Positions 3,207 through 52,801 of a stretch of DNA of 64,000 nucleotides are shown piece by piece. The stretch covers positions 23,454 to 87,453 of the forward strand of contig JBIOKR010000004.1 of assembly GCA_044451945.1 (NCBI GenBank). The letters are read 5' to 3'. The notes beneath the pieces were generated by a model. The model saw only the letters and a program-made list of their open reading frames with translations. It did not search any database and was not told the DNA's origin. Position 1 is the first letter of the stretch. Each line of letters begins with the position of its first letter. The stretch is from Candidatus Lutacidiplasmatales archaeon (GTDB lineage Archaea; Thermoplasmatota; Thermoplasmata; Lutacidiplasmatales; UBA184). A program made the translations under genes and the position numbers.

Positions 3207-3374
3207 GCCTTGTCTGGTCTCGGGCAGCGGAGAAGCGTTCGCCTGCATAAGGAGGAGCGGGGAGACCGCGGTCGGTCGAGGCGGGGGATCCGCCTTGATT
3301 GCGCGGGGGCAGGTCGGGGCCGCCGGTAGGGGAGCGCCTTTTATCGTGTCAGCCCCGATGGCCGTCCGATTCCG

Positions 3375-4412
3375 GTGGCCCACGACAGAGCGCTCCGAGT
3401 TCGAAGGCCCGGCGCCCCGGACCTCTCCTCCGCCGACACCCCGGCGCAGTGGGTCGGGGTCGACCTCGGAGGGACCAAGGTCGCCACCGGGCTCGTCGAC
3501 CCGAGGGGAACTCTCACCGGTGAAGCGCGCCGGCTCGTCCACGCCGCCAAAGGGCCTCCCACCGTCCTACGCCACGTGGTCGCCGCCGCGAGGGAGAGCG
3601 TTCGGAGTGCGCGGTCTCCCCCGATGGGGGTGGGCGTCGGGGTCGCCGGGCAGGTGCATCGGGCGACGGGCACGGTGATGTACGCGCCGAATCTCAAGTG
3701 GAAAGACTTCCCCTTGGGGGCGAAGCTCTCCGAGGCGCTGGGGCTGCCGGTCGCCGTCTCCAACGACGTCGTCGCCGTGGCGTGGGGGGAGTGGCTGCAC
3801 GGCGCGGGCGTCGGTTCGAACGATATCGTCTGCGTCTTCGTCGGCACCGGCATCGGCGGTGGGGTGGTGAGCGGCGGGCGAATGCTCGAAGGAGCGTCCA
3901 GCGCCGCAGGGGAGGTCGGCCACACGGCCCTGGTCGCCGGGGGCCGACGCTGTCACTGCCCGAACTCCGGATGTCTCGAGGCGTACGCGGGAGGGTGGGC
4001 GATCTCCGAGCGGGCGCGCGAGGCGGCTCTCGACGACCCTCGTCGTGGGGCGCCGTTGGTTCGGGCCGCCGGCTCCGTGTCGGCGATCAGCCCGGCGACC
4101 GTCATCGCGCTGCACCGCAACGGCGACCCGATGGCCACGACGATCTATCGCGACACCGCACGCTATCTATCCGATGGCATGGTGGGTATCGTGAACGCAT
4201 TCAACCCCGACCGGCTCATCCTCGGCGGCGGGGTCCTTGACGGCTGGCCCGAGCTCCTGCCCGAGGTGCGGCGCGCCGTGAGGTCGCGGTGCCAGCCGCC
4301 GGCCGCCCGCGCGGTCCACGTGCTCCCCGCCGCGCTCGGCAAGGAGGCCGGGGTCGTAGGCTCCGCCGCGATGGCGCGGGCCACCCTCTCCACGTTGGGG
4401 GGTCGGCGATGA
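3375..4412 (+). CDS. glk: ROK-family sugar kinase (glucokinase)
   Basis: [44 protein letters not shown] zinc motif. TTTTATCG lies ~30 nt upstream of the GTG. Confidence 0.9.
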
Positions 4413-6433
4413 GCGCGGTGGACGACCTGTCGGTCGGAACGCTCCGGTTCCTGAGCGTCGATATGGTCGAGGCGGCGAGATCCGGGCACCCGGGTCTTCC
4501 GCTCGGGGCGGCCCCGATGGCCTACGTCCTGTGGGACCGGCACCTTCGCCACAATCCGGCCAACCCAAAGTGGCCGAACCGGGACCGGTTCCTGCTGTCG
4601 GCCGGCCACGGTTCCGCGCTCCTCTACTCGCTGCTCCACACGACCGGCTACGACCTTGCGCTCGATGAACTGCGACATTTCCGACAGTGGGGAAGCCGGA
4701 CGCCGGGCCATCCGGAAGCGGGCCACACCCCCGGGGTCGAGGCGACCACCGGCCCGCTGGGCCAAGGGTTCGCGATGGGGGTCGGCATGGCGATCGCGGA
4801 ACGATTCCTCGCCAACACGTTCAACCGGGAGGGCCACGATCTGATCGACCATCGGACGTTCGCGCTGGTCTCCGACGGCGACCTCATGGAGGGGATCGCC
4901 TCCGAGGCGGCCTCGCTCGCCGGCCGCATCGGGCTCGGCAAGCTGACCTACCTCTACGACGACAACCATGTCTCCCTCGAGGGCGGTACGGAGCTCGCCT
5001 TCACCGAGGACGTGGGCAAGCGGTTCGCCTCCTACGGCTGGCGCGTTCAGCATGTCGCCGACGGGAACGACCTCGAAGCGATCGATGCGGCGCTAAGCAC
5101 CGCGATCGTCTCCAACGGGCAGCCGAACCTGATCATCGTCCGCACCCACATCGGCTACGGGAGCCCCCGACAGGATACGAAGGACGCCCACGGCGAACCG
5201 CTCGGCCCGGACGGGGTCCGCGCGACGAAGGAGAAGCTCGGATGGCCTCTCTCCCCGACGTTCCTCGTACCGGAGGCCGCGGGCCAGCATCTCGGTGAGT
5301 CGCTCGGACGCGGTGCAAAATGGGAGGCGGATTGGAACGCACGGCGCGACGAGTACGCCCGAAAGTTCCCCGACTTCGGCCAGAAGCTTACGGAGGCGCT
5401 CTCGGGCACGCTGCCGACCGGTTGGGCCGAGGGTCTTCCGGCGTATGACCCGAAATCGGGCGACGTCGCCACGCGCGACGCCGGGACGGCGATGATCAAC
5501 GAGATATCGCGGCGGATCCCGACCTTTCTCGGCGGATCGGCGGACCTGAACCCGTCGACCCGGACCTACCTGACGGGAGGCGGGGAGATGGGCCTCGATG
5601 GCGGCTCCGGCAAGAACGTTCACTTCGGGGTCCGAGAGCACGCGATGATGGCGATCGTCAACGGGATGGCGATGCACGGCGGCGTCCTTGCGTTCGGGGC
5701 GACGTTCTTCGTCTTCTCCGACTACGCCCGGCCGGCGATCCGTCTCGGCGCGCTGATGCGATCGAAGAGCCTCTACGTCTTCACCCACGACTCCGTGGCC
5801 CTCGGGGAGGACGGCCCCACCCATCAGCCGGTGGAGCAGCTCTGGAGCCTGCGGGCGATTCCCGGACTCACGGTCCTGCGCCCGGCCGACGCCAACGAGA
5901 CGGTTGCCGCCTGGCGGCTCGCGCTCGAACGGCCGGGCCCCGCCGCCATCGTGCTCACGCGCCAGAAGCTCCCGGTGCTTGACCCGGCCGCCTACCCGGT
6001 CGCCGAGGGGGTATCGCAGGGAGGCTACACGCTCTCGGAAGCGGGGGAGGGGCCGGTCGCGCTCATCTTCATCGCGACCGGTTCCGAGGTCTCCCTGGCG
6101 CTCGCCGCCCAACGCACGCTCGCCGAGCGTGGGGTCAGGACCCGCGTCGTCTCCATGCCGTCGGTCGAGGTGTTCAGTGAGCAGGGCGCCCAGTACAGGG
6201 AGCGCGTTCTTCCGCCCGGGGTCCCGAAGCTGGCCGTCGAAGCCGGCTCACCGGTCGGCTGGTGGCGCTTTGTCGGGGAGTCCGGTGGGGTGATCGGTAT
6301 CGAGCGGTTCGGGGCGTCCGCCCCCGGTCCGGTCGTCCTCGACCGGTTGGGCTTCAACGTCCCGCATGTCGTGGAGACCGCCCTCGCCCTCCTCCCGCCG
6401 GAACAGCGGGGCACCTCCTCCACGGCGCGGTAG
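4409..6433 (+). CDS. tkt: Transketolase (single-chain bacterial type)
   Basis: [22 protein letters not shown] ThDP motif, [28 protein letters not shown] overlap with glk. Confidence 0.97.
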
Positions 6434-6437
6434 CCCG

Positions 6438-8108
6438 ATGAGCGCTCGAATACCGGACCAGGGCCTCGCCGCACGCATCGAGGACCGGCTCGCGATTTGG
6501 CAGGCGAGCTCCTTCGCGCCGCGACTGTGGGCGAAGGACCCGACGCTCTGGTCGGCGACGCCGATGCCCGAGGTAACCGACCGGCTCGGATGGCTCGACC
6601 TCCCGATGTCGATGGCCTCCGAGGTCGGGAGCCTGTCGGGGTTCGCCGCCGAGCTACGGGATTCGGGCGTCCAGGACGTCGTGGTCCTCGGCATGGGCGG
6701 CTCGAGCCTCGCGCCGACGGTCTTTGCCCGCGTGTTCGGCTCCTCCGAACGATTCCCCCGGCTCACGGTCCTCGACACCACGCATCCCGACGCGATCGGC
6801 GAGGTGCGCCGGCGGCTCGACCTGGCCCATGCGGCGTTCGTCGTTTCGAGCAAGTCCGGAACAACGACCGAGACGCTGTCGCTGTTCGCGTACTTCTGGA
6901 AGGAGATCGAGTCGGAGGGTGCCGCGGCACCGGGAGCCCAGTTCGTGGCGATCACCGATCCGGGCACGCCGCTCGCCGAGCTCGCCCGAAAGCGCGGCTT
7001 CCGAAAGCTGTTTGAGGCGAACCCGAACGTCGGGGGCCGCTACTCGGCCCTGACCCACTTCGGGCTCGTGCCGGCCGCGATGATCGGCGTCGACGTCGAC
7101 CGCCTGCTCGGATGCGCCCGCGCCATGGCGGCCCGGTGTGGGGCCGGGGTGAAGGCGGCGGAGAACCCCGGCCTCGAACTCGGGGCGCTCCTCGGGGAGG
7201 CCGGCGTGTCGGGTCGCGACAAGGTGACGTTCCTGACCTCACCGCCGCTCTCCGGCTTCCCTGTCTGGATCGAGCAGCTGATCGCCGAGAGCACCGGGAA
7301 GGACGGCAAGGGGCTCGTCCCGGTCGCCGGCGAGCCCCTCCGGCCCCCGCCGACCTTCGGGGTGGACCGCGTCACGATCGGATACTCCGGCCCAGAGGGC
7401 AAGAAGGTGCCCCCGACTCCCCGGGGCCCCACCGATGCGGCGCCCCCCGGCTGGTCCGAGGAGCTCTCCGACGTCTACGAGCTAGGCGGGGAGTTCTTTC
7501 GTTGGGAGGTCGCCGTCGCCAGCGCCGGGGCGATCTTGGGGATCCACCCGTTCAACCAACCGGACGTACAGCTCGCCAAGGACCTGGCCCGTCGGGAGAT
7601 CGCGAGCCCGGCAGCCTCTCCGAGCGCCGGCGCTTCGGCCCCCGCGACGATGACTCCCGGAGACCTTGCGACGGCGCTCGGAGCGTTCTTCTCCGGAACG
7701 CGCCCGGGGGAGTACCTGGGGATCCATGCGTACCTCGCCCCGGACGCTGCGACGGACTCCGCCCTCTCCCAGTTGCGCATCGACCTTTCCGAGCGGACCC
7801 GGTTGCCGGTGACCCTCGGGTACGGGCCGCGCTTCCTCCACTCCACCGGCCAGCTCCACAAGGGCGGACCGCCGACCGGCCGGTTCCTCCAATTCGTCGA
7901 CACTCCCCGTCAGGACCTCCCGATCCCCGGGGAGGCGTTCACGTTCGGCCAGCTCATCGCCGCACAGTCCCGCGGCGACAAGGAGGCGCTTTCCCAGCGG
8001 GGCCGCACGGTACTCACGCTTCCCCTCGGAGGCGAACCCCTCCGAGCGATCGGCGGCGTCGGGGCGGCGGTCCGGGGAGCCGCCCGGCAACCCGGGGGCC
8101 GGCGCTAA
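6438..8108 (+). CDS. pgi: Glucose-6-phosphate isomerase (resembles the PGI module of Tal-Pgi fusions)
   Basis: GMGGSSL, SKSGTTTE, VGGRYSAL, EQLIAESTGK, HPFNQPDV, HSTGQLHKGGP. Confidence 0.88.
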   Translation: MSARIPDQGLAARIEDRLAIWQASSFAPRLWAKDPTLWSATPMPEVTDRLGWLDLPMSMASEVGSLSGFAAELRDSGVQDVVVLGMGGSSLAPTVFARVFGSSERFPRLTVLDTTHPDAIGEVRRRLDLAHAAFVVSSKSGTTTETLSLFAYFWKEIESEGAAAPGAQFVAITDPGTPLAELARKRGFRKLFEANPNVGGRYSALTHFGLVPAAMIGVDVDRLLGCARAMAARCGAGVKAAENPGLELGALLGEAGVSGRDKVTFLTSPPLSGFPVWIEQLIAESTGKDGKGLVPVAGEPLRPPPTFGVDRVTIGYSGPEGKKVPPTPRGPTDAAPPGWSEELSDVYELGGEFFRWEVAVASAGAILGIHPFNQPDVQLAKDLARREIASPAASPSAGASAPATMTPGDLATALGAFFSGTRPGEYLGIHAYLAPDAATDSALSQLRIDLSERTRLPVTLGYGPRFLHSTGQLHKGGPPTGRFLQFVDTPRQDLPIPGEAFTFGQLIAAQSRGDKEALSQRGRTVLTLPLGGEPLRAIGGVGAAVRGAARQPGGRR

Positions 8109-8155
8109 GCCTCGCCACGGCTCGGGGCGTCGGGCGGAGCGGGAGAGAGGGAGCG

Positions 8156-9070
8156 ATGGAGCTCGGGATCATTGGCCTAGGGAAGATGGGCGGCAACATG
8201 GCCGAACGGCTTGCGAAGGGCGGGCACCGCGTCGTCGGTTACGCCCGGCACCCCGACGCGGTCCAAGCCGTCGTGGCCCGGGGCTGCGAAGGTGCCTCCT
8301 CGCTCGAGGAGCTCGTCCGGAAGCTCCGAGCCCCGCGGGTCCTCTGGCTCATGATCCCGCAGGGGCCACCGGTCGACGACACGCTCCATGAGCTCCTCCC
8401 GCTGCTCGCCCGCGGGGATACGGTGGTCGACGGGGGGAACTCGTTCTACAAGGACAGCGTCCGGAGGGCGGGAGAGCTCGCACCGTCCGGGATCGGCTAC
8501 GTCGACTGCGGAACGAGCGGAGGCATCTGGGGCCTCTCCGGGGGCTACAGCCTGATGATCGGCGGGGACCCCGCGGTCGTCGAGCGCCTTCGTCCGCTGT
8601 TCGAGACGCTCGCTCCGGCCCCCGACAAGGGATGGGGCCGAGTCGGCCCGGTCGGTTCCGGCCATTTCACCAAGATGGTCCACAACGGCATCGAGTACGG
8701 CCTCATGCAGGCGTATGCCGAGGGGTTCGACGTGCTCCACCACAAGGCAGAGTTCGCCCTCGACCTCGCCCAGATCTCCGAGATCTGGCGCTACGGAAGC
8801 GTCGTGCGCTCCTGGCTGCTCGACCTGACCGCCTCCGCGCTCTCGGAGGACGCCACGCTCGCCGGCGTCCGACCGTACGTCGTGGACTCGGGGGAGGGAC
8901 GGTGGACCCTTCTCGAGGCGATCGACCTCGGCGTGCCGACGCCCGTTCTTGCGGACTCGCTCATCGAGCGCCTGCGTTCCCGGGAGACCGAGGATTCGTT
9001 CGCGGACAAGCTTCTCGCCGTGATGCGGGCGAAGTTCGGCGGCCACGCGATCCTCAAGGAAGGGGGATGA
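8156..9070 (+). CDS. gnd: 6-phosphogluconate dehydrogenase, decarboxylating (short YqeC-like type)
   Basis: GIIGLGKMG Rossmann motif, DGGNS, DCGTSGG, KMVHNGIEYG, DSGEGRW, FGGH. Confidence 0.95.
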   Translation: MELGIIGLGKMGGNMAERLAKGGHRVVGYARHPDAVQAVVARGCEGASSLEELVRKLRAPRVLWLMIPQGPPVDDTLHELLPLLARGDTVVDGGNSFYKDSVRRAGELAPSGIGYVDCGTSGGIWGLSGGYSLMIGGDPAVVERLRPLFETLAPAPDKGWGRVGPVGSGHFTKMVHNGIEYGLMQAYAEGFDVLHHKAEFALDLAQISEIWRYGSVVRSWLLDLTASALSEDATLAGVRPYVVDSGEGRWTLLEAIDLGVPTPVLADSLIERLRSRETEDSFADKLLAVMRAKFGGHAILKEGG

Positions 9071-10536
9071 GCGCGCCGCCCCCGGGACCCGCCCCCGCAC
9101 TCTTCGTCGTCTTCGGCGGTACCGGGGACCTCGCGCGACGCAAGCTCTTGCCGAGCCTCTTCCAACTGGCGGGCCGCGACCCTCCCACGCCGGCGTTCAG
9201 CGTGCTCGGCGTGGCGCGCAGCACGCAGTTCGACGAAGGCTCCTACCGGACGTTGGCCTCCGAGGCGCTGCGGGCCAACCAAAAGTTCGACCCCGCGCAG
9301 GTCAGCCGCTTCTGCTCCGAGCGGGTCTTCTACCAGTCGCTCGGCGCGAGCGGGCCTACCGAGTATCGCGCGCTCGCCGCGCGGATCGCCGACCTGGAAG
9401 AGCGCCAGGGACTACCGGGGAACCGTGTCCTCTACCTGGCGCTTCCGCTCTCCGCCTTCTCTGCGACGGTCGACGGGATCGCCTCGGCCGGCCTCGAGCG
9501 GGCCCCGGGATGGGTGAGGCTCGTCATGGAAAAACCGTTCGGCCACGACCTGGATAGCGCTCGAGCGCTCAACGCGAGCGTCCACCGCCTCTTCCCCGAG
9601 CCGTCGGTCTACCGGATCGACCATTACCTCGGCAAGGAGACGGTGCAGAACCTATTGGTCCTGCGCTTTGCGAACACGATGTTCGAGTCGCTCTGGAACC
9701 GCGACCGCGTCGACCACGTCGAGCTGACGGTCGCCGAGGCGCTCGGGGTGGAGTCCCGCGCCGACTACTACGAGGAGGCAGGGGCGCTCCGGGACATGGT
9801 GCAGAACCACCTGACGCAGCTGCTGACGCTCATGGCGATGGAGGTTCCCGCCGCCTACGAGGCGGAGGCGATCCGCAACGAGAAGGTGAAGGTGCTGCGG
9901 TCGATCGCCCCGGTCGCCAAGACGGACGCAGTCTTCGGGCAGTACGGCCCGGGGCAGCTCGACGGCTCGACGATGGCCGGGTATCGCGAGGAGGCCGGGG
10001 TCGCCGAGGATTCGACGACGGAGACGTTCGTCGCGCTGCGGCTGCGCATCGAGAACTGGCGATGGCATGGCGTCCCGTTCTACCTGAGGACCGGAAAGAG
10101 GCTCGCGAAGCGTACGACGCAGCTCCAGGTCCACTTCAAGGCCCCGCCGGTGAGCTTCTTCCACCCGACCGGAGAGGACGGAGCCATCCCGTCGAACCAG
10201 CTGAGGATCACGCTGCAGCCGGACGAGGGGTTCGACCTCCTCTTCGAGGTCAAGTCCCCGGACTCGGAGGTCAAGACGAGGACGGAGAAGATGCACTTCC
10301 GTTACGCCGAGGAGTTCGAGGGGCTGCCGGATGACTACGAGACCCTTCTTCTCGATGTGCTCAAGGGCGACGCCACGCTGTTCGTCCGCTCGGACGAGGT
10401 CGAGGCGTCCTGGCGACTGTACGACGGCTTGTTGAAGAACCGACCGACTCTCTGCTCTTATCCCGCCGGCAGCTGGGGACCGCGCGAGGCGGACGACCTG
10501 ATCGGCGGACCGGAGGACCGATGGGCCGAAGGCTGA
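9067..10536 (+). CDS. zwf: Glucose-6-phosphate 1-dehydrogenase (bacterial/eukaryotic Zwf type)
   Basis: FGGTGDLARRK, EKPFG, YRIDHYLGKE, RDMVQNH, W.GVPFYLRTGK. ATGA overlap with gnd. Confidence 0.97.
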   Translation: MSAPPPGPAPALFVVFGGTGDLARRKLLPSLFQLAGRDPPTPAFSVLGVARSTQFDEGSYRTLASEALRANQKFDPAQVSRFCSERVFYQSLGASGPTEYRALAARIADLEERQGLPGNRVLYLALPLSAFSATVDGIASAGLERAPGWVRLVMEKPFGHDLDSARALNASVHRLFPEPSVYRIDHYLGKETVQNLLVLRFANTMFESLWNRDRVDHVELTVAEALGVESRADYYEEAGALRDMVQNHLTQLLTLMAMEVPAAYEAEAIRNEKVKVLRSIAPVAKTDAVFGQYGPGQLDGSTMAGYREEAGVAEDSTTETFVALRLRIENWRWHGVPFYLRTGKRLAKRTTQLQVHFKAPPVSFFHPTGEDGAIPSNQLRITLQPDEGFDLLFEVKSPDSEVKTRTEKMHFRYAEEFEGLPDDYETLLLDVLKGDATLFVRSDEVEASWRLYDGLLKNRPTLCSYPAGSWGPREADDLIGGPEDRWAEG

Positions 10537-11300
10537 ACCCCGAGACGCTGATCCGACGCGAGCCGGCCTCGCTGATCCGCGAGCTCGCAGGGCGGATCGC
10601 CCTGCGGGCCGAAGCGGCGGTCCGGGACCACGGTGCCTTCTACCTGACGCTCTCCGGCGGCGAAAGCCCGCGGCCGCTCTACGAGGCGCTCGCCCACCAG
10701 AGCGAGCCGAAGGTCCCCTGGGGCCAGGTCGACGTCTTCTGGAACGACGAGCGGATGGTGCCACCGGGGCACCCGGAGAGCAACTTCGGGCTCGCGGAAA
10801 AGACACTTCTCTCCCGCGTTCCGCTCGCCCGCGGCCACATCCATCGGATCCTGGGGGAGTCGGCCGAGCCGATGGACGCGGCGCTCGCCTACGAGCACGA
10901 GCTGCATGATCACTTTCCGGCGGACAAGTTCGGCGAGGTCCCGACGACGTTCGACCTGCTGCTCCTAGGCATCGGTCCGGACGGCCACACCGCCTCTCTG
11001 TTTCCGGGCGACTCCGGATCGATCGAGACCGGCCGATGGGTGACCCCGGTCCCCGTCGCCGGGGAGGCCCCGTTCGTGCCCCGCGTGAGCCTCACGATCT
11101 CCGCGTTCAACCGGGCCCGCGCCGCCTACTTCCTCGTCACCGGCGCCGCGAAGTCGGGGATCGTCCGGCGGGTCGTCGAGGAGCACGGAAGCGCCACGGC
11201 AGCGCTCCCGGCGGCGCGCGTAGAACCGCTCGGGGAGCTCGTCTACTTCCTCGACGGCCCCGCGGCCTCGGAGCTGCCGAAAAGCTCCGGCGCGAACTAG
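10521..11300 (+). CDS. pgl: 6-phosphogluconolactonase
   Basis: LSGGESP, FWNDERMVP, SNF, LLGIGPDGHTASLFPG, RVSLT. Confidence 0.93.
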   Translation: MGRRLNPETLIRREPASLIRELAGRIALRAEAAVRDHGAFYLTLSGGESPRPLYEALAHQSEPKVPWGQVDVFWNDERMVPPGHPESNFGLAEKTLLSRVPLARGHIHRILGESAEPMDAALAYEHELHDHFPADKFGEVPTTFDLLLLGIGPDGHTASLFPGDSGSIETGRWVTPVPVAGEAPFVPRVSLTISAFNRARAAYFLVTGAAKSGIVRRVVEEHGSATAALPAARVEPLGELVYFLDGPAASELPKSSGAN

Positions 11301-12241
11301 CCCCGGGCCCTACTCCGGCCGTCTTTTCTCCGTGGCGGCCCGCTCCGTCGTGCGCAGACCAGGAACGACGCGCCGACGCCCAGGCACTCGGGGAGACGGC
11401 CGCAACGCTCCTCCACGTCCAGCAGGTTCGCCCAGGCGACGCGGTCCCGATGGAGCCTCTTGAGCAGCGCTGCCTGGTTCCCCAGAAGGGGGCCGACCGA
11501 CATGCGATCGTTGACCGTGAATCCGGCCTGCGCGAGTCGTCGGGAGAGGTCGTCGGGCCGCCAGAACCCGAACTCCCACGGGGCGCCGTGCTCCGGGTCG
11601 TGCGGTTGCCACCCCTCTTCGAAGATCCGGTGGAGGTGGTACTCGCGGGGCGCCCTCAACAGGACTCGCGCGGATCTCGGGAAGAGCGGGAAGAGCTCTC
11701 CGATCACGCCCGACGGGCTCACGCCTTCCAGCAGCAGGATGCCCCCGGGGCGCAGGACCCTTCGGGCGCCCTCGAGAAGTTCGCTCACGTCCCGACCGAA
11801 GAAACCGAAGAGTCCGACGAGGACGATCGTACCGGCCGAACGGTCCCGCATCGGCCGGAGGCCCTCCGCCGCCGCCTGGAGGTAGCCCATCGGCCGGACC
11901 GCGCCGCGTCCGCGCCGTTCGAGCCCCTGTCGCGCCGCCTTGAGCATCGGCCTCGACAGATCGTAGAGGATGGTGGGCCGTCCGGCAGCGAGGATGGTTC
12001 TGCTGAACCGACCCGTCCCCGGCCCGATCTCCAGGATGGGACCGCGGCCCTTGGCGAGGTGGAGCGCGAGAAACCGCTCGACGAGTGTGCCGCGAAGTTC
12101 GCGATGAGGATCCCCGCGCAATCGCTCGCGCTCGCGCCGGACGTGGGCATCGAACGTCCGGCGGAGGTGCTTGCGGCGTTCCGCCGGAGGGGAAGGGGTG
12201 TAGTGCTTCGGGGTGCGGGAGGAAGCTCGGGAGGGGCGCAT
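11297..12241 (-). CDS. Class I SAM-dependent methyltransferase
   Basis: ILEIGPGTGRFS motif I, YDLSRPML, RRVLRPGG. Convergent 4-nt overlap with pgl. Confidence 0.85.
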   Translation of the reverse strand: MRPSRASSRTPKHYTPSPPAERRKHLRRTFDAHVRRERERLRGDPHRELRGTLVERFLALHLAKGRGPILEIGPGTGRFSRTILAAGRPTILYDLSRPMLKAARQGLERRGRGAVRPMGYLQAAAEGLRPMRDRSAGTIVLVGLFGFFGRDVSELLEGARRVLRPGGILLLEGVSPSGVIGELFPLFPRSARVLLRAPREYHLHRIFEEGWQPHDPEHGAPWEFGFWRPDDLSRRLAQAGFTVNDRMSVGPLLGNQAALLKRLHRDRVAWANLLDVEERCGRLPECLGVGASFLVCARRSGPPRRKDGRSRARG

Positions 12242-12244
12242 GGG

Positions 12245-13243
12245 CTACAACAACCGATACTCGCGCTTTCGGGAGTCGTGCAGCGAGACGGTCTCCTGGA
12301 CGATCCCCTGGACGCGCAACGCGTCAAGCGCGCTCTGCACGGTCCGCCGGGGAAGGCGGGAGAGCCGGACCAGCTCGGACTGGTCGAGGCCGCCGTGGCT
12401 CTCGAGCAGGAAGTAGAGGAACTTCGTCGCGGGAGGGCCCTTTACGGTGCGCGTGGAATGGAGCGTGCCGAAGGTGTCCCCCCGGAGGCCGAGCCGTTGC
12501 GAGGCGAGGGAGGCGACGTTCGAGAGCGGCACGTTGCCCAAATTCGCCTGGACCCCGAGCTCCTTCAGCAGCCCGACCTGCTGGGATTCGAGCGGCGCGC
12601 CGAAGATCAGGTCCTCGGAGGAGTGCGCGGCGACGATCGAATGCACCCAATCCCACTTGATCCCGCCCTCGTGGTCGTAGATCCCGACCCCCCGGCCGGA
12701 CTCCCGACTTTCGAGGATCACCTTGCGCGGTTTGAGCGCGAGCGCCCGTCCGACCTGGTCGACGGTCTCTCGCAGAGAGAGTTGGTTCTGCGGGTTCTTC
12801 TTGCCGACCTCGATGAACACGTCCAGGCCCGAGGCGCGCGCCTCCACGGCGAGCCGTTCGAGCTCTTCTGGAGAGATCGGGAGGATGCCGTCCGACAGTT
12901 CCACGAGGTCGAACCCGATCTCGCGCGCTTCCATGATGAGCCGGCGGCTTTTCCCTCGGGAGAAGGCGTACTCGAGCAGGGTCCCGCTCGTGGCGACCTC
13001 GACGCCGAGCTCGTGGTAGGCGCGCACCCGGCGGCGCACCTCGTCACGCGAGAACAGGAGGGGAAGGCCCCAACCGAGCTCGACATAATCGATGTACGGG
13101 GCGAGCGGACGAACTTCCTCAAGGGAGAGTCCGTGGAAACCGTCGAGGACGTGCGTGATGCCGGCGTCGCGTGGACGGGTCGGATTGGGCGCCTTCAGGG
13201 GGAAGAACGCCTCGTTCGACTCCCGAGGGCTCACCGAACTCAT
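12245..13243 (-). CDS. comA: Phosphosulfolactate synthase (ComA)-family TIM barrel fused to a C-terminal winged HTH
   Basis: GITHVLD, LGWG, ELSDG, IEVGKK, ESRESG.GVGIYD, ANLGNV, GLRGDTF. The tail QSELVRLSRLPRRTVQSALDALRVQGIV...DSRKREY is MarR/TrmB-like wHTH. Confidence 0.82.
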   Translation of the reverse strand: MSSVSPRESNEAFFPLKAPNPTRPRDAGITHVLDGFHGLSLEEVRPLAPYIDYVELGWGLPLLFSRDEVRRRVRAYHELGVEVATSGTLLEYAFSRGKSRRLIMEAREIGFDLVELSDGILPISPEELERLAVEARASGLDVFIEVGKKNPQNQLSLRETVDQVGRALALKPRKVILESRESGRGVGIYDHEGGIKWDWVHSIVAAHSSEDLIFGAPLESQQVGLLKELGVQANLGNVPLSNVASLASQRLGLRGDTFGTLHSTRTVKGPPATKFLYFLLESHGGLDQSELVRLSRLPRRTVQSALDALRVQGIVQETVSLHDSRKREYRLL

Positions 13244-13533: not shown

Positions 13534-14970
13534 TCAAGGAGGGACGGCTTCTCCCGCCACGCCTAGATTGCTATCGAGCAATAGATCGATCGGCCGTCCT
13601 TGCATCCCCGGCGGGATCGCCACACCGAGCCGCGCGAGGATGGTGGGCGCGACGTCGATGAGCGACTGCTCGGGGATAGGCGCCCCATGGCTCCAGAGCG
13701 GGTCGGCGACCGCGATCACCCCGGACATTGAATGCACCGAGTCATCCGGCCCGGTATCGTTTTCTGAGAGGAACAGCGAGGGGTGACCCACCGTACCCGC
13801 CGACCTCCAGCGAAGATCGCCGAAGTAGACCATCAGATCCGGCGCATCGCCGTTCACCGCCTGGTAGAGGTCGCGCGGGCGACGGACGTCCGCCCCGATC
13901 GGGCGGCCGTCCGGGCCCAGGACTCGACCGAGTGCCTGACGGAGCTCCTTGGCCAGAGGGTCGACCGCGTCGGGGGCCACGACCCCCTCGGGCTCTCGAC
14001 CTTGGACGTTGAAGAAGATTCGGGCGTAGTAGCCTCCGGCGCCCCACGCCCGGGTTCGCCCCCAATCAACGTCGCACTCCTCGATAGGAGTCCCGGGAGC
14101 GGGTGGGGCCCCTCGGAGCACTAGATACCCTTCTTGCCTCAGCCAGTCGTTTACGCAAAAGCAGCCGGTCATCCCCTGGCTCCCGTGATCGGAAGCGATG
14201 ATCACCGTCACCTCCGGCGGCACCAACTCCAGCAACTCGCCCAGCTGCGAATCGAGCAGCTGGTAGTACTCCTCCGCGACCGGTGAGAACTTCGGATGGT
14301 ATTCGTATCGTGGATGACGGGGGTCGAAGTACTTCCAGAAGGCGTGGTGGAGCCTGTCGGGCCCGATGTCGTGGACCGCGAAGAAGTCCCATGGTTCCTT
14401 CACCCAGAGATGCCGAGCGACCTTCCATCGGCGTCGGGTCATCTCGAAGAGCTCGGTGGCGGTCCGGGACCGGTCCTCCGCTCGGAAAGGGACGTCGAAC
14501 ACAATGCCGCCGGCCAACCTCTGGAGTTCCTCGGTGAGACCGGCGGGGGTGACGATGTTCTTCGCGTCGGGCGGGGTGAGGAAATCCGACAAGTACACTC
14601 CATTGACGGTCGGGGGAGGGTAGCCAGGGGGCATCCCGAGGACGGCGACCCGCCGACCCATGCGTGAAAGCACGTCCCAGACGGAGGGGTACCTCAGCAT
14701 GCCGCTGGTCGGAGTGTAGTTGTCGAAGTAGCTGCCCGGGCGACGGTGGCGAAAGCCGTAGAGCCCGAGAGCGCCCGGGTCCATCCCGGTCATCATCACC
14801 GCCCAAGCCGGTACCGTGATCGGTGGGTCGCAGCTCCTGAGCGTGCCGAACCGGGACCGGGCGATCAATCGGTCGAGGTGAGGCATCTTTGGGCGGAAGC
14901 GCAGGAAGAGGAGCTCGGGGGGAACGGAGTCGAGGCCCAGGAGCAGGACCCTAGGGGAGCTCTGGGTCAC
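13534..14970 (-). CDS. Alkaline phosphatase superfamily protein (type I phosphodiesterase/nucleotide pyrophosphatase-like)
   Basis: LLGLDS, PPITVPAW (Thr nucleophile), DRLHH, ASDHG, late His (DDSVHS). Confidence 0.88.
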   Translation of the reverse strand: MTQSSPRVLLLGLDSVPPELLFLRFRPKMPHLDRLIARSRFGTLRSCDPPITVPAWAVMMTGMDPGALGLYGFRHRRPGSYFDNYTPTSGMLRYPSVWDVLSRMGRRVAVLGMPPGYPPPTVNGVYLSDFLTPPDAKNIVTPAGLTEELQRLAGGIVFDVPFRAEDRSRTATELFEMTRRRWKVARHLWVKEPWDFFAVHDIGPDRLHHAFWKYFDPRHPRYEYHPKFSPVAEEYYQLLDSQLGELLELVPPEVTVIIASDHGSQGMTGCFCVNDWLRQEGYLVLRGAPPAPGTPIEECDVDWGRTRAWGAGGYYARIFFNVQGREPEGVVAPDAVDPLAKELRQALGRVLGPDGRPIGADVRRPRDLYQAVNGDAPDLMVYFGDLRWRSAGTVGHPSLFLSENDTGPDDSVHSMSGVIAVADPLWSHGAPIPEQSLIDVAPTILARLGVAIPPGMQGRPIDLLLDSNLGVAGEAVPP

Positions 14971-18218: not shown

Positions 18219-21200
18219 TCATGGCGAAGGCGAGTTCTTCCCGGGTGGAGGTGGCGTGGCTCGGCGGCGGGCCAGGTAGAAGCCGATCAGAACGGCGAGG
18301 ACCGGGCCGACTACCCCGAGGGCGATGAGCCAGGGAGCGGGAGTGGCCGATGGCTCGCTGTGGCTACCGTTGGTGACCGGTGTGTAGACCGGCCCGAAGC
18401 TCGCCCGCTCGCTGACCGGACTGGAAACGACCAGGATGGCCGTGCCGTTGCTGCCCGTGTAGGAGCTCGGGCCCATGCCTTCCCAGCCGAGGAATCGGTA
18501 ACCTGTGTCGGCTGTGGCCGTCAGCGCGATCATTCCACCTGAGTCGACCCAGGAGGAACTGCCGACGAGATTGCCGCCGATCCCGCCGCCGACCGAGAGC
18601 CAGAACTGCTCGGTGAAGTTGATGCTGGTCGTGCCGTTCTGGTTGACGCTGAGCGTGATCGCGGAGGGCGCGGTGAACCGGGTGCCGACCCCGACGTAGA
18701 TAGGGGCGACCGCCAGCTCGTAGCTTCCGTTGAGACCGCTCAGGGTGAGGGTACCGGCTCCCGAAGCTCCCACGTTCCCGGCCGAGACGTTCCAGCTCGT
18801 GCCGGCAGGAAGGCCGGTCTCCTCGATGGTGACGGTGTAGATCGCGGGCGGCGGGAAGTCTCGGTAGAGGAAGGAGGCGGTCTCCTTCACCGGGCCCACC
18901 AAGGTGACGTTCGCGTACCCCGGCAGGCTCCTCGGTGAGGGGCCGACGCGATCGGAGCCGTTCCCGCTCCCGTTCCAGCCCACGAACCGGTGGTGATAGG
19001 AGGGGGTCGCCGTGAGGCTCACGACGTTCCCGGAATCCTCCCAATAGACCCCCGCCGCCGGTGAGGTCACGCCCCCGGTCGAGGCGGCGATGGTCAGAAG
19101 GAATTGGGTCGAGAAGTTCACGTAGATCGTCCCGTTCCCCGTGACGTTGGCCTTCGCTCCCGTCATCACGAAGCTCGACGACAGATGCGTCGGGAGGAAC
19201 CGAGTGGTGGCGTTGAGGTTCAGGTAGGCGGGGATGGCGGAGAGCGTGTACTCCCCGGTCACCAGCCCATTGATCACGAACGTCCCCGCACCCGAGTAGC
19301 TCATGTTGCCGACGCTCACCGTGTAGGTGGAGCCGGCGGGCAGGCCCGCCGGAACGACGGTCAGCGCGTATCTAGGGAGCGGCACGGGCTGGAAGGTCGC
19401 GACCTCCGTGACGGGCCCCGTCGGGTAGATCGTGATCGAGGGCTGAGGGTTCTGACTCTGGTTCGACGAGCCATTACCCGAGCCGGTCCAGGAATTGAAC
19501 GTGTAGTCGGCGAGGGGGGTTGCCACGAGGTGGACGCCCGTGCCCGGGGCCACCCATTCGCTCGAAGGCGTCGCACTGCCGCCCTGGCCGGAGGTGACGG
19601 TGAGGCGCTCGAGAGGGGCGAACCGCACGACGAGGAGCCCGGGCCCGTCGATCGTCAGGCCCTGAGTAGCGGTACTCCCGTTCTGCCATCCCGAGAAGTT
19701 CTGGACGAACGGTCGGAAGGAGACCCCGGAGGCCGTGTACGCAACGCCGGCCTCGGTGTAGACGTTCCAGCCCGTGACGGAGACGTTCCCGCCAGCCGCC
19801 ACCTCCAGAAGGTCCCCTCCCGACGAGACCACCTGGGCCGCACCGCCCGCGTAAAGTGACCAGAGAGTGCGCGCGGGCAGGCCCGAGGAGCTCACGTTGA
19901 GGGGGAACTCCATCCCCGAGACGTTCTCCTGGGTGAACGTGATGAGCACGACTCCGACCCTCGGGACCGCAAGGGGCGACGCGGCGTCCGCCAAGGGCAC
20001 CCAGAGGATCCCCGGGGTTTGCGTCGGCACGGTCCAGACGACGTATGTGTGAGGCGCGGCGGTCACCCCTAGCGATATCGCGCTCAGGTTGGTCGACAGA
20101 GTTCGGTTTCCGTCGATCCGCACCGACCAGCTCGTGTTGTACGGTAGGCCCCTCTCGGCGAAAGTGAGGGCGTAACGCTGCACGGGTGTGCAGGAGAACG
20201 ACCGCACAACGCCGCCGTACCCGTACCCCGAGCAGTAGTCGTTGAACTGGAAGTTGGCGGTCTGATTCACCGGTCCTCTCATCCCTACCTTGACGGCGCT
20301 CGCGTTCGAGCTGACGCTTCCCGGGCCCGTCCCGGTCCACGAAAGGAAGGTGAGGTTCCAGTACTCGCATTGGGAGGTGCAGGAAGGCGGCGAGAACGTG
20401 ACGGTCAGGAGCCGACTGGTGTTCACGGGGATCCAGTAGTTCCCCACCGCGGGCGACATGAGGTAGTTCGTCGGCTGGTAGTACGAGTTGACGGGGACGA
20501 GCTTCGGGATCACCGAGATGTTGAGGAGCACCTGCTCTGAGTACGCCACCGAGATCACGGAGGGAACGGCGAAGCTTCCCGGCGAGGCGGTGCGCACTAC
20601 GGGCGTCCACTCGACCCCATAGCGGGGGTACATCGTCGGCACGGCCCACTCGACGCTCACGCCAACGGGAACCCCGGTGACGGTGAGGTTGGCGCCGAGC
20701 GGACCCAGTCGGTAGTTGCCGCTCATCTCCGCCCACCAGGTCGTCCCGGCCGAGAGGTTCGTCTCGTTGAAAGTGACGGTGAGGCCCGCTCCGGTGAACA
20801 GCTCCGAGATCACGACGCTCGCGTTGGAGGTGGTGCTCGGGAAGCTGCAGTACGGGGACGGCGCGCAGGAGGATAGGGTCCACGCCAGCACGACGTGCGA
20901 TCCCTCGACGACCATCGTGGCGTACTCCCCGTCGTACTGCCCGGGCTGAACCGAATAGGTCGGATAGACATCGAACGGTCCGTTGAAGGTGCTTGCGTTG
21001 TCGCTCGAGTTGAGGAAGACCTGCTGGACCGAGCCGCAGACCGGATAGCTGTAGTACGGGGTGGCGTTGGCCGCAAGGCAGTTCGTGTCGTTGACGTACG
21101 TCGCGCTCAGATCGAGGGTCCCATCCGGCGCGACGCCGATCGACGGGTTGTAGGCGATGTTCGCCGCCCCACCGTCCGGATTCACCAGGCTCGAGAGGAA

Positions 21201-22706
21201 CGACGGGCTCGACCAGTTCGCGCCGCCATCCGATGAGTTCTGGACGAAGACGTCCTCCGTCATCGAGCCGTTCGTGCAGCGGTCGTAGAGCGATTGCTCG
21301 CAGAGGTTCCCGGCGAGCCAGGCGCTGTACGAGACGAACAGCTGGCCAAAGCGCGCCCCGTAGGCGAGCGTCGGGGCGGGGTCCGCGAAGATGCCCCGCG
21401 GGCCGTGGTCGAGATAGCTTTGCGTGAAGAGCCCGCTCGCGGCGACGTGGGCGGTCCAGCTCGCTCCGTTCGTGGACGAGTTCGCGACGACGACGTCCGC
21501 CGTCCATCCGGAGCTCTCGCAGGTGTGCGGTGCGTACGGGGCGCAGTAGTGGGTGTAGTACAGGTAGTTCCAGCCCGTCGAGTAGGCGACGTAGAGCTCC
21601 CCGCTCGGCAGCGCGAGGACATACGGGTTGACCGCCACATGGGTCACCTCACCGGCGTAGTCGCCGGTGATCACCGGGAGATTCTCGATCTTCCCGAACG
21701 TTACCCCGCCGTCCCTCGACACCCTCAGATGGATCTGGGCCGCCCCGGGAAGGACGTACGAGAAGTTCTCCCAGACGACGTAGACGTTCGCTCCGTTGGC
21801 GGTCACCCAGTCGCGCATCGGCGGCGCGTCGGTCGTCCCGTAGTAGAGGTAGACCGATTTGTGGAAGGTGGAGTTCACGACGGTACCGGCGGACCAAGTG
21901 CTGCCGTTGTTGTAGCTCACCTGGACCACGAGTCGGGTGTAGTGCAGGTACGGGGGATTCGAGTACGGCGGCGTACCGACGTTCGAACCGTACGAGCTGA
22001 AGTTCGAGTACTCTAGGTAGCTCAACACCAACGTCCCGTTGGAGAGCGACGTGAGGCTCGGTTGCATCGCCGAGGGGTACTGCAGGGCGACGCTGCAGTT
22101 CGGGTTGTCGAAAAAGCGGGGTGCGGTCCAGGTCCCCCCATAATTGCTCGACGTCTGGAAGCCGATGACCGTGTAGGTCCGGCCGGAGACGTTGGCGCAG
22201 ATCGAGTTGTTGACGAACGCCGTGTAGGCGACCGCAAGCAGCCCTCTCGAGGTCAGGTTCACGGACGGGTCGTTCGTGAGGTTGATGCAGACTCCGGTCC
22301 TGAAGTAGCCCCCGTAACTCAGGCAAGTGCGGTTGCCCCCCTGTGGCACAACCTGACTCGTGAAGAACGTCCCCCGGCCGGAGGTGGGGGACCCGGAAAG
22401 CGTCGGGAAGACCGGGGAAGGGGCGAGATGGGACGCCATCGGGGCCTGGGAAGGAGCGTCCAGGAGCCGCTCCGGGGATTGCATGCCCGTCAATGGCGTC
22501 GGAGTGGCCGGGGATGCGAGACCGGGGGACGGAGCCGGGGGATAGGTCAATGGAGCAGAGGCGCTCGCAAGCCCGTTCAGAAGGAACAGCAACACGACGG
22601 CACTTGCGAGGAGGCTACTGCGGCTCGGCAGGGAGGGCGAGACGACACGATTGTTCCCGGGTCTCCGGCTGGCCGTTGCCCCTCTCGATCGGTCGGCCCC
22701 GCTCAT
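18219..22706 (-). CDS. Giant surface protein: six Asp-box (BNR/sialidase-like) propeller, repeated beta-sandwich stalk, C-terminal TM anchor
   Basis: Asp-boxes SSNYGGTW, SYNNGSTW, SRDGGVTF, SSTNGASW, SSDGGANW, SSDNASTF. Repeated E.GLP.GT.W.V and F.GW.GSG.GS units. TM helix followed by RRR. Confidence 0.85.
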   Translation of the reverse strand: MSGADRSRGATASRRPGNNRVVSPSLPSRSSLLASAVVLLFLLNGLASASAPLTYPPAPSPGLASPATPTPLTGMQSPERLLDAPSQAPMASHLAPSPVFPTLSGSPTSGRGTFFTSQVVPQGGNRTCLSYGGYFRTGVCINLTNDPSVNLTSRGLLAVAYTAFVNNSICANVSGRTYTVIGFQTSSNYGGTWTAPRFFDNPNCSVALQYPSAMQPSLTSLSNGTLVLSYLEYSNFSSYGSNVGTPPYSNPPYLHYTRLVVQVSYNNGSTWSAGTVVNSTFHKSVYLYYGTTDAPPMRDWVTANGANVYVVWENFSYVLPGAAQIHLRVSRDGGVTFGKIENLPVITGDYAGEVTHVAVNPYVLALPSGELYVAYSTGWNYLYYTHYCAPYAPHTCESSGWTADVVVANSSTNGASWTAHVAASGLFTQSYLDHGPRGIFADPAPTLAYGARFGQLFVSYSAWLAGNLCEQSLYDRCTNGSMTEDVFVQNSSDGGANWSSPSFLSSLVNPDGGAANIAYNPSIGVAPDGTLDLSATYVNDTNCLAANATPYYSYPVCGSVQQVFLNSSDNASTFNGPFDVYPTYSVQPGQYDGEYATMVVEGSHVVLAWTLSSCAPSPYCSFPSTTSNASVVISELFTGAGLTVTFNETNLSAGTTWWAEMSGNYRLGPLGANLTVTGVPVGVSVEWAVPTMYPRYGVEWTPVVRTASPGSFAVPSVISVAYSEQVLLNISVIPKLVPVNSYYQPTNYLMSPAVGNYWIPVNTSRLLTVTFSPPSCTSQCEYWNLTFLSWTGTGPGSVSSNASAVKVGMRGPVNQTANFQFNDYCSGYGYGGVVRSFSCTPVQRYALTFAERGLPYNTSWSVRIDGNRTLSTNLSAISLGVTAAPHTYVVWTVPTQTPGILWVPLADAASPLAVPRVGVVLITFTQENVSGMEFPLNVSSSGLPARTLWSLYAGGAAQVVSSGGDLLEVAAGGNVSVTGWNVYTEAGVAYTASGVSFRPFVQNFSGWQNGSTATQGLTIDGPGLLVVRFAPLERLTVTSGQGGSATPSSEWVAPGTGVHLVATPLADYTFNSWTGSGNGSSNQSQNPQPSITIYPTGPVTEVATFQPVPLPRYALTVVPAGLPAGSTYTVSVGNMSYSGAGTFVINGLVTGEYTLSAIPAYLNLNATTRFLPTHLSSSFVMTGAKANVTGNGTIYVNFSTQFLLTIAASTGGVTSPAAGVYWEDSGNVVSLTATPSYHHRFVGWNGSGNGSDRVGPSPRSLPGYANVTLVGPVKETASFLYRDFPPPAIYTVTIEETGLPAGTSWNVSAGNVGASGAGTLTLSGLNGSYELAVAPIYVGVGTRFTAPSAITLSVNQNGTTSINFTEQFWLSVGGGIGGNLVGSSSWVDSGGMIALTATADTGYRFLGWEGMGPSSYTGSNGTAILVVSSPVSERASFGPVYTPVTNGSHSEPSATPAPWLIALGVVGPVLAVLIGFYLARRRATPPPPGKNSPSP

Positions 22707-46210: not shown

Positions 46211-46548
46211 GAACTCCCGGAAGCCTCGCAGGCCGGAGACCGAGGGGCAAGATAATGACGCCGGAGCCGCCGGTGGCTTGCCCGAAGCGACGCGCCCTTT
46301 TCGAGCCGGTTTCTTGTCTCGCGAGAGCTCTCCGGTTGAGCCTTCATACTCCACCGACGGAATCGTTCGAATGACGGTGTTTACGGTGATGCCGTGGCCG
46401 TTCCGTTCGGGTCTCGGAAGTTCTATTACCCATGGCCCAGATGGGCGAGCCTCCCGTTGGTGCGACGGCCTAATGGGCTTCGCCCTCGGAAGACAAAAAG
46501 GGGATGGATAAAGTGGACCTTGGGAAGAGAACGTTTTTGGGACGTGGC

Positions 46549-47445
46549 ATGAAAAGCGTGACGTTGGGAGCGGGGGCGGTCGGTATCGCACTCATCATGC
46601 TGCTATCTCCGATGGCCGGCGCAAGCGCGCCCCGCGTGGGGTTCAAGGGCGCCGTCTATCAGGTCTCCCTCAGCCAGAGCAACTCGGGCTGCGGGACGAT
46701 CAAGGCGAGCTACCCGACATGGTCGGCGCTTACCGGCGCGGCACACTGGAAGTCGAGTGCGGTTTCCAAGAGCTGCTCTAGCGTCTACGGCACCGTCGGC
46801 TCGAGCTCCGCGGCTTCGTCGAGCGGGTCGATCGAGGTCGCCGCCCCGGTGAAGATGGTCTCGGGCGTCGGCGGCGTCAACGTCAGCTGGGCACTCGCCG
46901 TCGCCTGGGCCGTCGCCGCGAAGGTCGGCCCCTCCGGGGTCTGCCCCGGCTATTCCTACAACTACAGCTACTACTACTCGTACTACAACAGCTGGATCAA
47001 CTACAGCGACAGCTACTCGTACTGCTCGGTCGACGCCTCCCTCTCGATCAGCGCGTCCGTCTACCTCGTCGATCTCTCGACGAGCGCGACCTACTACCCG
47101 TCGAACTACTGGTCCGGGCTCAACAAGGGCTTCGACACCTACAACGACACCTCGACGACGGTGGAGACCTGGTCCAACTCGTCGTACTGGCAGAACAACT
47201 ACACCTCCTGGTACACGAACGGCTACCGCAGCGGCTCGACCGGCTCGGGAACCCTGGGCGCTTCGAGCTCTCCCCAGTTCTTCATCAACGGGACGTTCGT
47301 CGGGACCGACAAGTACGCGATCATCGCGACCTTCAGTGCGTACACCAACTCGAATGTCAACGGCATGAAGAAGTCCATGGCGTCCGCGATGGTGGACTTC
47401 GCGAGCACGGGACTAGGGGCCGACCTACAGGCGGTCGTCTGGTAA
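46549..47445 (+). CDS. Secreted beta-rich protein, APYKG-family member 3
   Basis: Signal ending MAGA, VGFKGA, SGCG...C, Tyr-rich C-x26-C loop, [18 protein letters not shown]. Confidence 0.78.
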
Positions 47446-52283: not shown

Positions 52284-52801
52284 GGTCCCGGTCCTCCAAG
52301 CCGAACGGCTAGATGAGACCTGTGGAACAGGTGTCCGCGTGGCTACCGCTGGATGAGCGTGGGTATCCTGACGCCCACTTTCGGCTCAACTTTAACGGCA
52401 CGCCAGTTTCCTGACGTGCCGGCCAGGTCGCGGTAGTAAGCCCCTTTCTGTTTCAGGCAACATTCGACTGCGCGCTCTCCTCGACGGTCGGGGGATCAGC
52501 CTCATACCGTCACTCAGGGCTTGCTCCCGGGGAGTCGGCCGTTTCACCAACTCCAGGAGGAAGCTCCGGCCCCAGGCCTTCACCGTACCTCCCGGCTGTG
52601 TCGTTTCTGCTCCGTTGCTCGGACTCTCGCCCGACGGGCTCCCGCCCGTCCCCGTGATCCCCGGAGAGGGGACTTTCCTCAGCAGGCCGACGTTGTTGGT
52701 CGGTCCCACCGTCAGCTGCCCTCCGCCTCCTGGCAAGGATACGGAGCGTCCCCGGAGGGATAATCCCTGCGGGCGGACGGGGGGGAAAGGGGGATACCTG
52801 A

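Follow-up and report, generated by a model that had tools for sequence, protein, structure and literature searches.

Most archaea lack an oxidative pentose phosphate pathway and use the ribulose monophosphate (RuMP) pathway, as set out in two reviews (PMC9700705, PMC12525153). The only archaeal oxidative pathway that has been characterised biochemically is that of the haloarchaea, whose glucose-6-phosphate dehydrogenase is of archaeal origin and unrelated to the canonical enzyme Zwf (PMC9700705, PMC12525153), as exemplified by Azf of Haloferax volcanii (Pickl and Schoenheit 2015, as cited in both reviews). For the Lutacidiplasmatales, a supplementary note of Sheridan et al. (2022, Nat Commun 13:4110; PMC9287336) lists a gain of zwf and gnd at the ancestor of the order, which gained aerobic respiration and glycolytic genes together; the term 'pentose phosphate' does not occur in the main text of that study. 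Here, we analysed a stretch of 64,000 nucleotides (hereafter the window) from contig JBIOKR010000004.1 of a Candidatus Lutacidiplasmatales archaeon, which carries the six-gene operon glk-tkt-pgi-gnd-zwf-pgl. A first reading of the bare sequence (the original prediction) had proposed a complete bacterial-type oxidative pentose phosphate operon that was acquired as a whole from bacteria. Our analysis makes it very likely that this is a functional-looking canonical operon, the tkt-pgi-gnd-zwf-pgl block of which would have entered the ancestor of the window's family in one ancient transfer from bacteria. The core of this finding, i.e., the gain of zwf and gnd, is already on record for the order. 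New are the anatomy of the six genes, their synteny with bacterial operons, the single-clade phylogeny, three variants and their incongruence with taxonomy, a glk-comA docking site and the promoter evidence. By comparison, the earlier study covers the same lineage and establishes gene presence by reconciliation only, leaving the operon, its six-gene make-up, synteny, variants and promoter undescribed.

The six genes are co-oriented at positions 3375-11300 of the window:

3375..4412, plus strand: glk, ROK-family sugar kinase, probable ATP-glucokinase, 345 aa, GTG start
4409..6433, plus strand: tkt, full-length bacterial-type transketolase, 674 aa
6438..8108, plus strand: pgi, glucose-6-phosphate isomerase without a Tal domain, 556 aa
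8156..9070, plus strand: gnd, short-chain decarboxylating 6-phosphogluconate dehydrogenase, 304 aa
9067..10536, plus strand: zwf, canonical glucose-6-phosphate 1-dehydrogenase, 489 aa
10521..11300, plus strand: pgl, 6-phosphogluconolactonase, 259 aa, overlapping zwf by 16 nt

Genes were called by Pfam and NCBIfam profile searches, and junctions, start codons and motifs were read directly from the sequence and its translations. Overlaps of 4 nt (glk/tkt), 4 nt (gnd/zwf) and 16 nt (zwf/pgl) and intergenic gaps of 4 nt (tkt-pgi) and 47 nt (pgi-gnd) reproduce exactly the order, orientation and spacing given in the original prediction. A purine-rich GGGAGAGAGGGAG stretch precedes gnd.

For four of the gene products, Tkt, Gnd, Zwf and Pgl, the scores exceed the equivalog cut-offs of NCBIfam. 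Zwf reaches 559 bits against TIGR00871 (cut-off 400.6), contains the two domains G6PD_N and G6PD_C, and has 9emm as its nearest structure (417 bits); its translation carries the motifs GGTGDLA, EKPFG, RIDHYLGKE and DMVQNH. Gnd exceeds the cut-offs of both NF007161 (443 bits, cut-off 271) and TIGR00872 (380 bits), combines the NAD-binding and the C-terminal 6-phosphogluconate dehydrogenase domains of Pfam and shows the motif HNGIEYG. Its nearest structures are the short 6-phosphogluconate dehydrogenases 4e21, 6vpb and 8ihe. RIDHYLGKE, DMVQNH and HNGIEYG are the motifs that had been pointed out at the outset, and all three are present. Pgl scores 194 bits against TIGR01198 (cut-off 124) and 218 bits against Pfam Glucosamine_iso. 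All three enzymes of the canonical oxidative set Zwf-Pgl-Gnd are present by domain and equivalog criteria, and the gene identities support the claim of a complete, canonical, bacterial-type operon in a Thermoplasmata archaeon.

Among the remaining enzymes, Tkt reaches 832 bits against TIGR00232 (cut-off 682) and comprises three Pfam Tkt domains. Pgi corresponds in type to the C-terminal half of bifunctional Tal/Pgi proteins: its match to NF007080 is confined to positions 390-947 and reaches 580 bits, below the cut-off of 712, and it scores 56 bits against Pfam PGI. Searches with Pfam and NCBIfam found no TAL_FSA domain in the window's Pgi, which is not a Tal-Pgi fusion. Glk scores 224 bits against Pfam ROK, has the ROK fold and carries DLGGT and a CxC..GC zinc motif in its translation; glucose as its substrate is suggested by the operon context.

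The closest counterparts of this locus are found in soil bacteria. Named top matches outside the window's family are bacterial, with 55-62% identity, and belong mainly to soil Acidobacteriota (Terriglobia, Acidiferrales), NC10, Armatimonadota, Zixibacteria and Gemmatimonadota. Many bacterial metagenome-assembled genomes (MAGs) carry the same order, as tkt-pgi-gnd-zwf-pgl in Zixibacteria and as glk..pgi-gnd-zwf-pgl in Acidobacteriota and NC10. Taken as tkt-(tal-)pgi-gnd-zwf-pgl, the operons of these five bacterial groups share enzyme families and order with the window at 55-68% protein identity, including the short-chain Gnd and the Tal/Pgi-type Pgi. Unlike them, the window's operon resides in an archaeal host, and its Pgi lacks the Tal domain, transaldolase being encoded separately by a short gene of archaeal type outside the operon. 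With the haloarchaeal pathway, the operon shares an archaeal route from glucose-6-phosphate to ribulose-5-phosphate that reduces a nicotinamide cofactor. However, the haloarchaeal enzyme belongs to the short-chain dehydrogenase/reductase type, as the original prediction had stated in agreement with the two reviews, whereas the window encodes the classical two-domain Zwf. Among archaea, the same order is also seen in a Hydrothermarchaeales MAG (FS_2_bin.2, L018; glk-tkt-(gap)-pgi-gnd-zwf-pgl). In contrast to those of the window's family, its sequences branch among bacterial ones, which argues for an independent acquisition of the operon by Hydrothermarchaeales.

The distribution of Zwf, scored by the presence of G6PD_C, was followed through three samples. 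In a first set of 41 relatives, the domain occurred in 14 of the 25 genomes of the window's genus and in none of the 16 of other genera. Across an evenly drawn sample of 401 genomes of the class Thermoplasmata, 37 encode Zwf, all of them within six genera of the window's family (37 of its 57 sampled genomes), and Zwf is absent from all 344 sampled genomes of the class outside that family. Finally, a sample of 401 genomes from the phylum Thermoplasmatota yielded eight with Zwf: six from the family and two sporadic cases elsewhere. The latter two (G474, G596) are unrelated Thermoplasmatota genomes. Several near-complete genomes of the family lack Zwf. Canonical Zwf is rare across the phylum and common in one family. 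The transfer is hence not confined to this contig but ancient and family-wide; with the gain of zwf and gnd already on record for the order, this answers in part to an operon documented as widespread in the lineage, which the original prediction had itself named as contrary evidence.

Within the family, the operon occurs in three variants. Variant A, glk-tkt-pgi-gnd-zwf-pgl, comprises the window, G271 and the MAGs AcS5-107 and SubAcS15-120, the last two without the upstream glk and tkt. Variant B1 has the same gene order and is found in G013, G022 and others. Variant B2, present in most genomes, reads tkt-[918-aa Tal-Pgi fusion]-HAD hydrolase-gnd-zwf-pgl. Its layout can be seen in relative G020 (L093:5069-7825 and 7566-8432) and likewise in L094-L096 and L099-L102; the window differs from it by its unfused Pgi and by the lack of the HAD gene. 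One possibility is that the HAD hydrolase conserved between pgi and gnd in B2 is a sugar-phosphate phosphatase.

Phylogenetic trees were calculated without a root and with a bacterial sample made up of the 80 best matches to the window's Zwf. The nearest Zwf sequences come from MAGs named 'Thermoplasmata archaeon', including AcS5-107 and SubAcS15-120, and these two are the nearest for Zwf, Gnd and Pgi alike, apart from one other MAG. In the Zwf tree, a branch with an SH-like approximate likelihood ratio test (SH-aLRT) value of 95 has all 39 family sequences on the same side, and the window clusters with L012, L013 and L014 (99). The family likewise forms one clade in the Tkt tree (98). Concatenation of Gnd, Zwf and Pgl (53 taxa, 1025 columns) united 34 family sequences with ultrafast bootstrap/SH-aLRT values of 100/100, and the family clade, set apart from the bacteria, was recovered in 100% of the bootstrap trees. 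Moreover, the 120 best matches of a B2 Zwf are 66-76% identical to it, and those that carry a name come without exception from Thermoplasmata archaea. Soil bacteria with the same gene order on the one hand and a single clade of archaeal sequences on the other support the claim of a bacterial origin by movement as an operon. A recent, separate import of the operon from bacteria was also considered but rejected, as the window forms a long branch within the archaeal clade of the trees. The window's Zwf is nevertheless closer to some Terriglobia (61-62% identity) than to most archaea of its own genus (52-58%).

Several observations weigh against a single ancient transfer of a canonical operon. Glk reaches 211.6 bits against the ROK-glucokinase subfamily TIGR00744 and remains below the cut-off of 260.35. 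The phylogenies that the original prediction had proposed as a check agree in part: Zwf and Tkt give one family clade, but the single-gene trees of Pgi and Gnd are too poorly resolved to recover a monophyletic family. Because the trees are unrooted, the direction from bacteria to archaea rests on the distribution, and together with the restriction to the 80 best Zwf matches this means that no donor phylum can be named. In the Glk tree, the B1 glk is placed on the side of the bacteria, though weakly supported. Moreover, the operon tree conflicts with the genera of the GTDB: constraining the window's genus to stay together lowers the log-likelihood by 216 units (approximately unbiased test, p=0.0007), in a comparison made after the tree had been seen and with genus labels external to it. 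This conflict indicates that inheritance within the family was not purely vertical.

Some of these points would also suit several independent transfers from bacteria to archaea, in which A, B1 and B2 were acquired separately, or pgi and glk were later replaced by bacterial imports. Zwf identity between the variants is 52-58%, which does not exceed the 61-62% that the window shares with some Terriglobia, and their architectures differ, with fused and unfused pgi both known from bacteria. In addition, the Pgi tree places clade A with Acidobacteriota and Gemmatimonadota (SH-aLRT 91, a branch left unstarred), and the B1 glk joins bacterial glk (83/89). Nevertheless, we consider independent transfers unlikely, as the concatenate unites the 34 family sequences at 100/100, Tkt (98) and Zwf (95) return the same grouping, and the named sequences among the 120 best B2 Zwf matches, at 66-76%, are all from Thermoplasmata archaea.

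A still less probable explanation is that an ancestral archaeal Zwf was inherited vertically and lost nearly everywhere else, or that the genes moved from archaea to bacteria. An unrooted topology alone gives no direction, which leaves room for both. However, Zwf is missing in all 344 sampled class genomes that lie outside the family and in 393 of the 401 phylum genomes, its homologues are deeply diverse and spread across many bacterial phyla, control archaeal genomes lack the enzyme family, and the reconciliation of Sheridan et al. (2022) puts the gain at the ancestor of the order. We regard this explanation as very improbable.

The archaeal identity of the host is supported by the surroundings of the operon. 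Downstream of it lies a conserved archaeal neighbour outside the pathway:

12245..13243, minus strand: comA-MarR, Pfam ComA and MarR_2

The same 95-kb contig encodes an archaeal RNase P RNA (52425..52731, minus strand; Rfam RF00373, 185 bits against a gathering score of 84). The assembly comprises 2.28 Mb in 87 contigs with 67.8% GC, is estimated to be 94% complete with 1.3% contamination and contains an archaeal 16S gene. Compared to 950 confident genes of the genome, the six operon genes lie at the 16th-83rd percentile in codon usage and in GC content at third codon positions (GC3), which bears out the proposed GC amelioration. In the relative G023, the operon, comA and pyrB occur in the same order and orientation on a single 413-kb contig. 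Furthermore, the PyrB coordinates of SubAcS15-120 (G771:C87:3790-4593) are identical to those of G759, which is labelled with the same genus as the window. Sheridan et al. (2022; PMC9287336) include AcS5-107 and SubAcS15-120 in their Table 1 as MAGs of the Lutacidiplasmatales (TMEG), an order that they describe with a GC content of ~69% and genomes of ~2.1 Mb. Through SubAcS15-120/G759, GC and size, the window's genome groups with these published MAGs: the lineage is the same, SubAcS15-120 falls into the window's GTDB genus, and the values of ~68-69% GC and ~2 Mb agree. Archaeal RNase P, codon usage, synteny and the PyrB match thus point to a soil Lutacidiplasmatales host and set chimerism aside; the contig's archaeal taxonomy, which had been put up for confirmation, holds. 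An assembly or binning artefact, i.e., an operon on a bacterial or chimeric contig misplaced in an archaeal bin, could appeal to the bacterial best matches outside the family and to a MAG of 87 contigs, but has next to no probability given the RNase P RNA on the same contig, the host-typical codon usage, the synteny of the flanking glk, comA and pyrB with relatives, and the presence of the operon in at least 37 family genomes, some on contigs of 0.4-2.3 Mb.

How the operon came to lie between glk and comA can be approached by comparing close relatives. Orthologues of comA-MarR with 65-70% identity are present in 11 of 12 of them, in several as the immediate neighbour of a stand-alone glk. Such lone orthologous glk genes, next to or close to comA, are seen in G023, G738, G730, G763 and G120, and in G023 a B2 operon lies ~30 kb from this stand-alone glk-comA on the same contig. 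The window's Glk clusters with the stand-alone copies and with the operon copy of G271 (95/95). In the window, the space between glk (3375-4412) and comA is taken up by the five other pentose phosphate genes and a methyltransferase gene (11297-12241, minus strand); a bare glk-comA junction is seen in the relatives' loci L138 (11281-13276), L141, L146 and L139. Judging from these arrangements, the interval between glk and comA is likely an insertion or excision junction of the tkt-pgl block. Two histories fit: in the window's lineage, tkt...pgl came to be placed between comA and a glk already resident there, or the relatives have excised or relocated this block. The glk of the window's lineage may have arrived separately from the tkt-pgl block. 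Of the whole-operon transfer that had been proposed, the core block therefore stands, and glk, which occurs as an orthologous stand-alone gene beside comA in close relatives, was perhaps not part of it.

The comA-MarR gene at 12245-13243 is itself an observation in its own right, in that a non-methanogenic archaeon here encodes ComA (phosphosulfolactate synthase) with a MarR-type winged helix fused to its C-terminal end. This fusion, conserved at 65-70% identity across the family, may be tied to the sulfite metabolism proposed for the order.

Three deep variants that conflict with the genera, and absence from many near-complete genomes, would also be expected of a module that is exchanged within the family. 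Taken as a proxy for species distance, the identity of PyrB to that of the window (70-83%) showed no correlation with the identity of Zwf (52-66%; rho 0.06, n=31). As a single marker, PyrB cannot alone separate transfer within the family from ancient variants with differential loss. We put forward an exchangeable module only tentatively, as a possible reading on which we remain doubtful. If true, it would mean repeated lateral replacement or relocation of a central-metabolism operon within one family.

Upstream of glk, we found a candidate promoter element, where the bacterial operons would have a bacterial promoter:

3339..3346, plus strand: putative archaeal TATA box TTTTATCG, 29-36 nt 5' of the glk GTG at 3375

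Its hexamer TTTTAT (3339-3344) is found nowhere else in the 64-kb window, and the whole 2.28-Mb genome contains only 17 copies. When the regions preceding 384 genes with unambiguous starts were compared, AT content was highest at -35 to -25, and TATA-like 5-mers were concentrated at -40 to -26. An alignment of the glk upstream regions of relatives revealed no conserved promoter, because their glk directly follows another gene. Public sequencing runs that might show transcripts or start sites were looked for, and none was found. In an archaeal leaderless promoter, the TATA box would lie ~26-27 nt 5' of a transcription start located at the start codon itself, and both the position and the rarity of TTTTAT fit a leaderless or very-short-leader archaeal transcript. 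The TATA-type leaderless promoter proposed at the outset is hence supported as a prediction from sequence, by a correctly placed box and a genome-wide upstream pattern that agrees with it.

Outside the operon, the genome encodes the non-oxidative partners Tal (short archaeal type, C42:16183-16809), Rpe (C8:55709-56299) and RpiA (C9:59471-59986), which together with the Tkt of the operon complete the non-oxidative branch. An incomplete branch had been considered and was rejected when the Pfam search found this short Tal. A tblastn search of the genome with a relative's long Tal domain returned no transaldolase, a false negative in light of the Pfam match. By tblastn, the genome holds no second copy of the operon's Tkt, Pgi or Glk.

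A genome-wide search for RuMP enzymes found HPS with 223 bits, above its equivalog cut-off, and a full-length PHI-like gene with 139 bits, just below the cut-off, as in all family members. HPS (C11:1207-1821) forms part of an open frame of ~448 aa, which makes a fusion with another domain probable. The PHI-like gene (C23:25646-26152 in this genome) scores consistently 10-25 bits lower in the family than in other Thermoplasmata families. The RuMP enzymes appear to be retained but somewhat diverged. A replacement of RuMP by the oxidative pathway, as suggested by a KEGG table in the supplement of Sheridan et al., was rejected, since HPS is above its cut-off and the PHI-like gene is kept. With RuMP retained, the operon would add an NAD(P)H-yielding oxidation of glucose rather than replace pentose synthesis.

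In the mechanism that we propose, Glk would phosphorylate glucose, Zwf and Pgl would convert glucose-6-phosphate to 6-phosphogluconate, and Gnd would decarboxylate the latter to ribulose-5-phosphate, with a predicted yield of two NAD(P)H per glucose-6-phosphate; Pgi would close the cycle. Alignment to known structures shows that Zwf keeps the Arg of GVAR and that Gnd has YAR where 4e21 has YDL. We tentatively take both to be hints of NADP+ use. After its transfer, the block would have adapted fully to the composition of the host, come under an archaeal TATA-type promoter and split into the three deep variants.

Besides the operon and its neighbours, the window contains several genes of other kinds. 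A type I phosphodiesterase/nucleotide pyrophosphatase is encoded at 13534-14970 (minus strand), with a 52%-identical paralogue on contig C12, and two large proteins of the PF04185 phosphoesterase family, one with an fn3 domain, are found at 44099-46591 (minus strand) and 54644-56284 (plus strand). Together, these genes suggest a phosphate-scavenging theme in the window. Two adjacent, very long open reading frames of 1495 and 1448 aa (18219-22706 and 22703-27049, both on the minus strand) overlap by 4 nt. Furthermore, STAND-like AAA_16 ATPases with TPR repeats are encoded at 33001-35409 and 37706-39967 (both on the plus strand), the first with a MarR-type domain at its N-terminus; a role as signal-transducing regulators is probable for both.

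The enzymes described here are ordinary members of their families and their gain was known, so that our analysis refines a known story and opens no new one. Zwf and Gnd from such an archaeal host would lend themselves well to cofactor studies. For the family, the operon offers a clean example of a bacterial central-metabolism module that would have been added to archaeal metabolism during the move to oxic soils. The gains of aerobic respiration and glycolytic genes at the ancestor of the order fit such an added NAD(P)H route from glucose, and its main benefit would presumably lie in NADPH supply and sugar oxidation for an aerobic life in soil.

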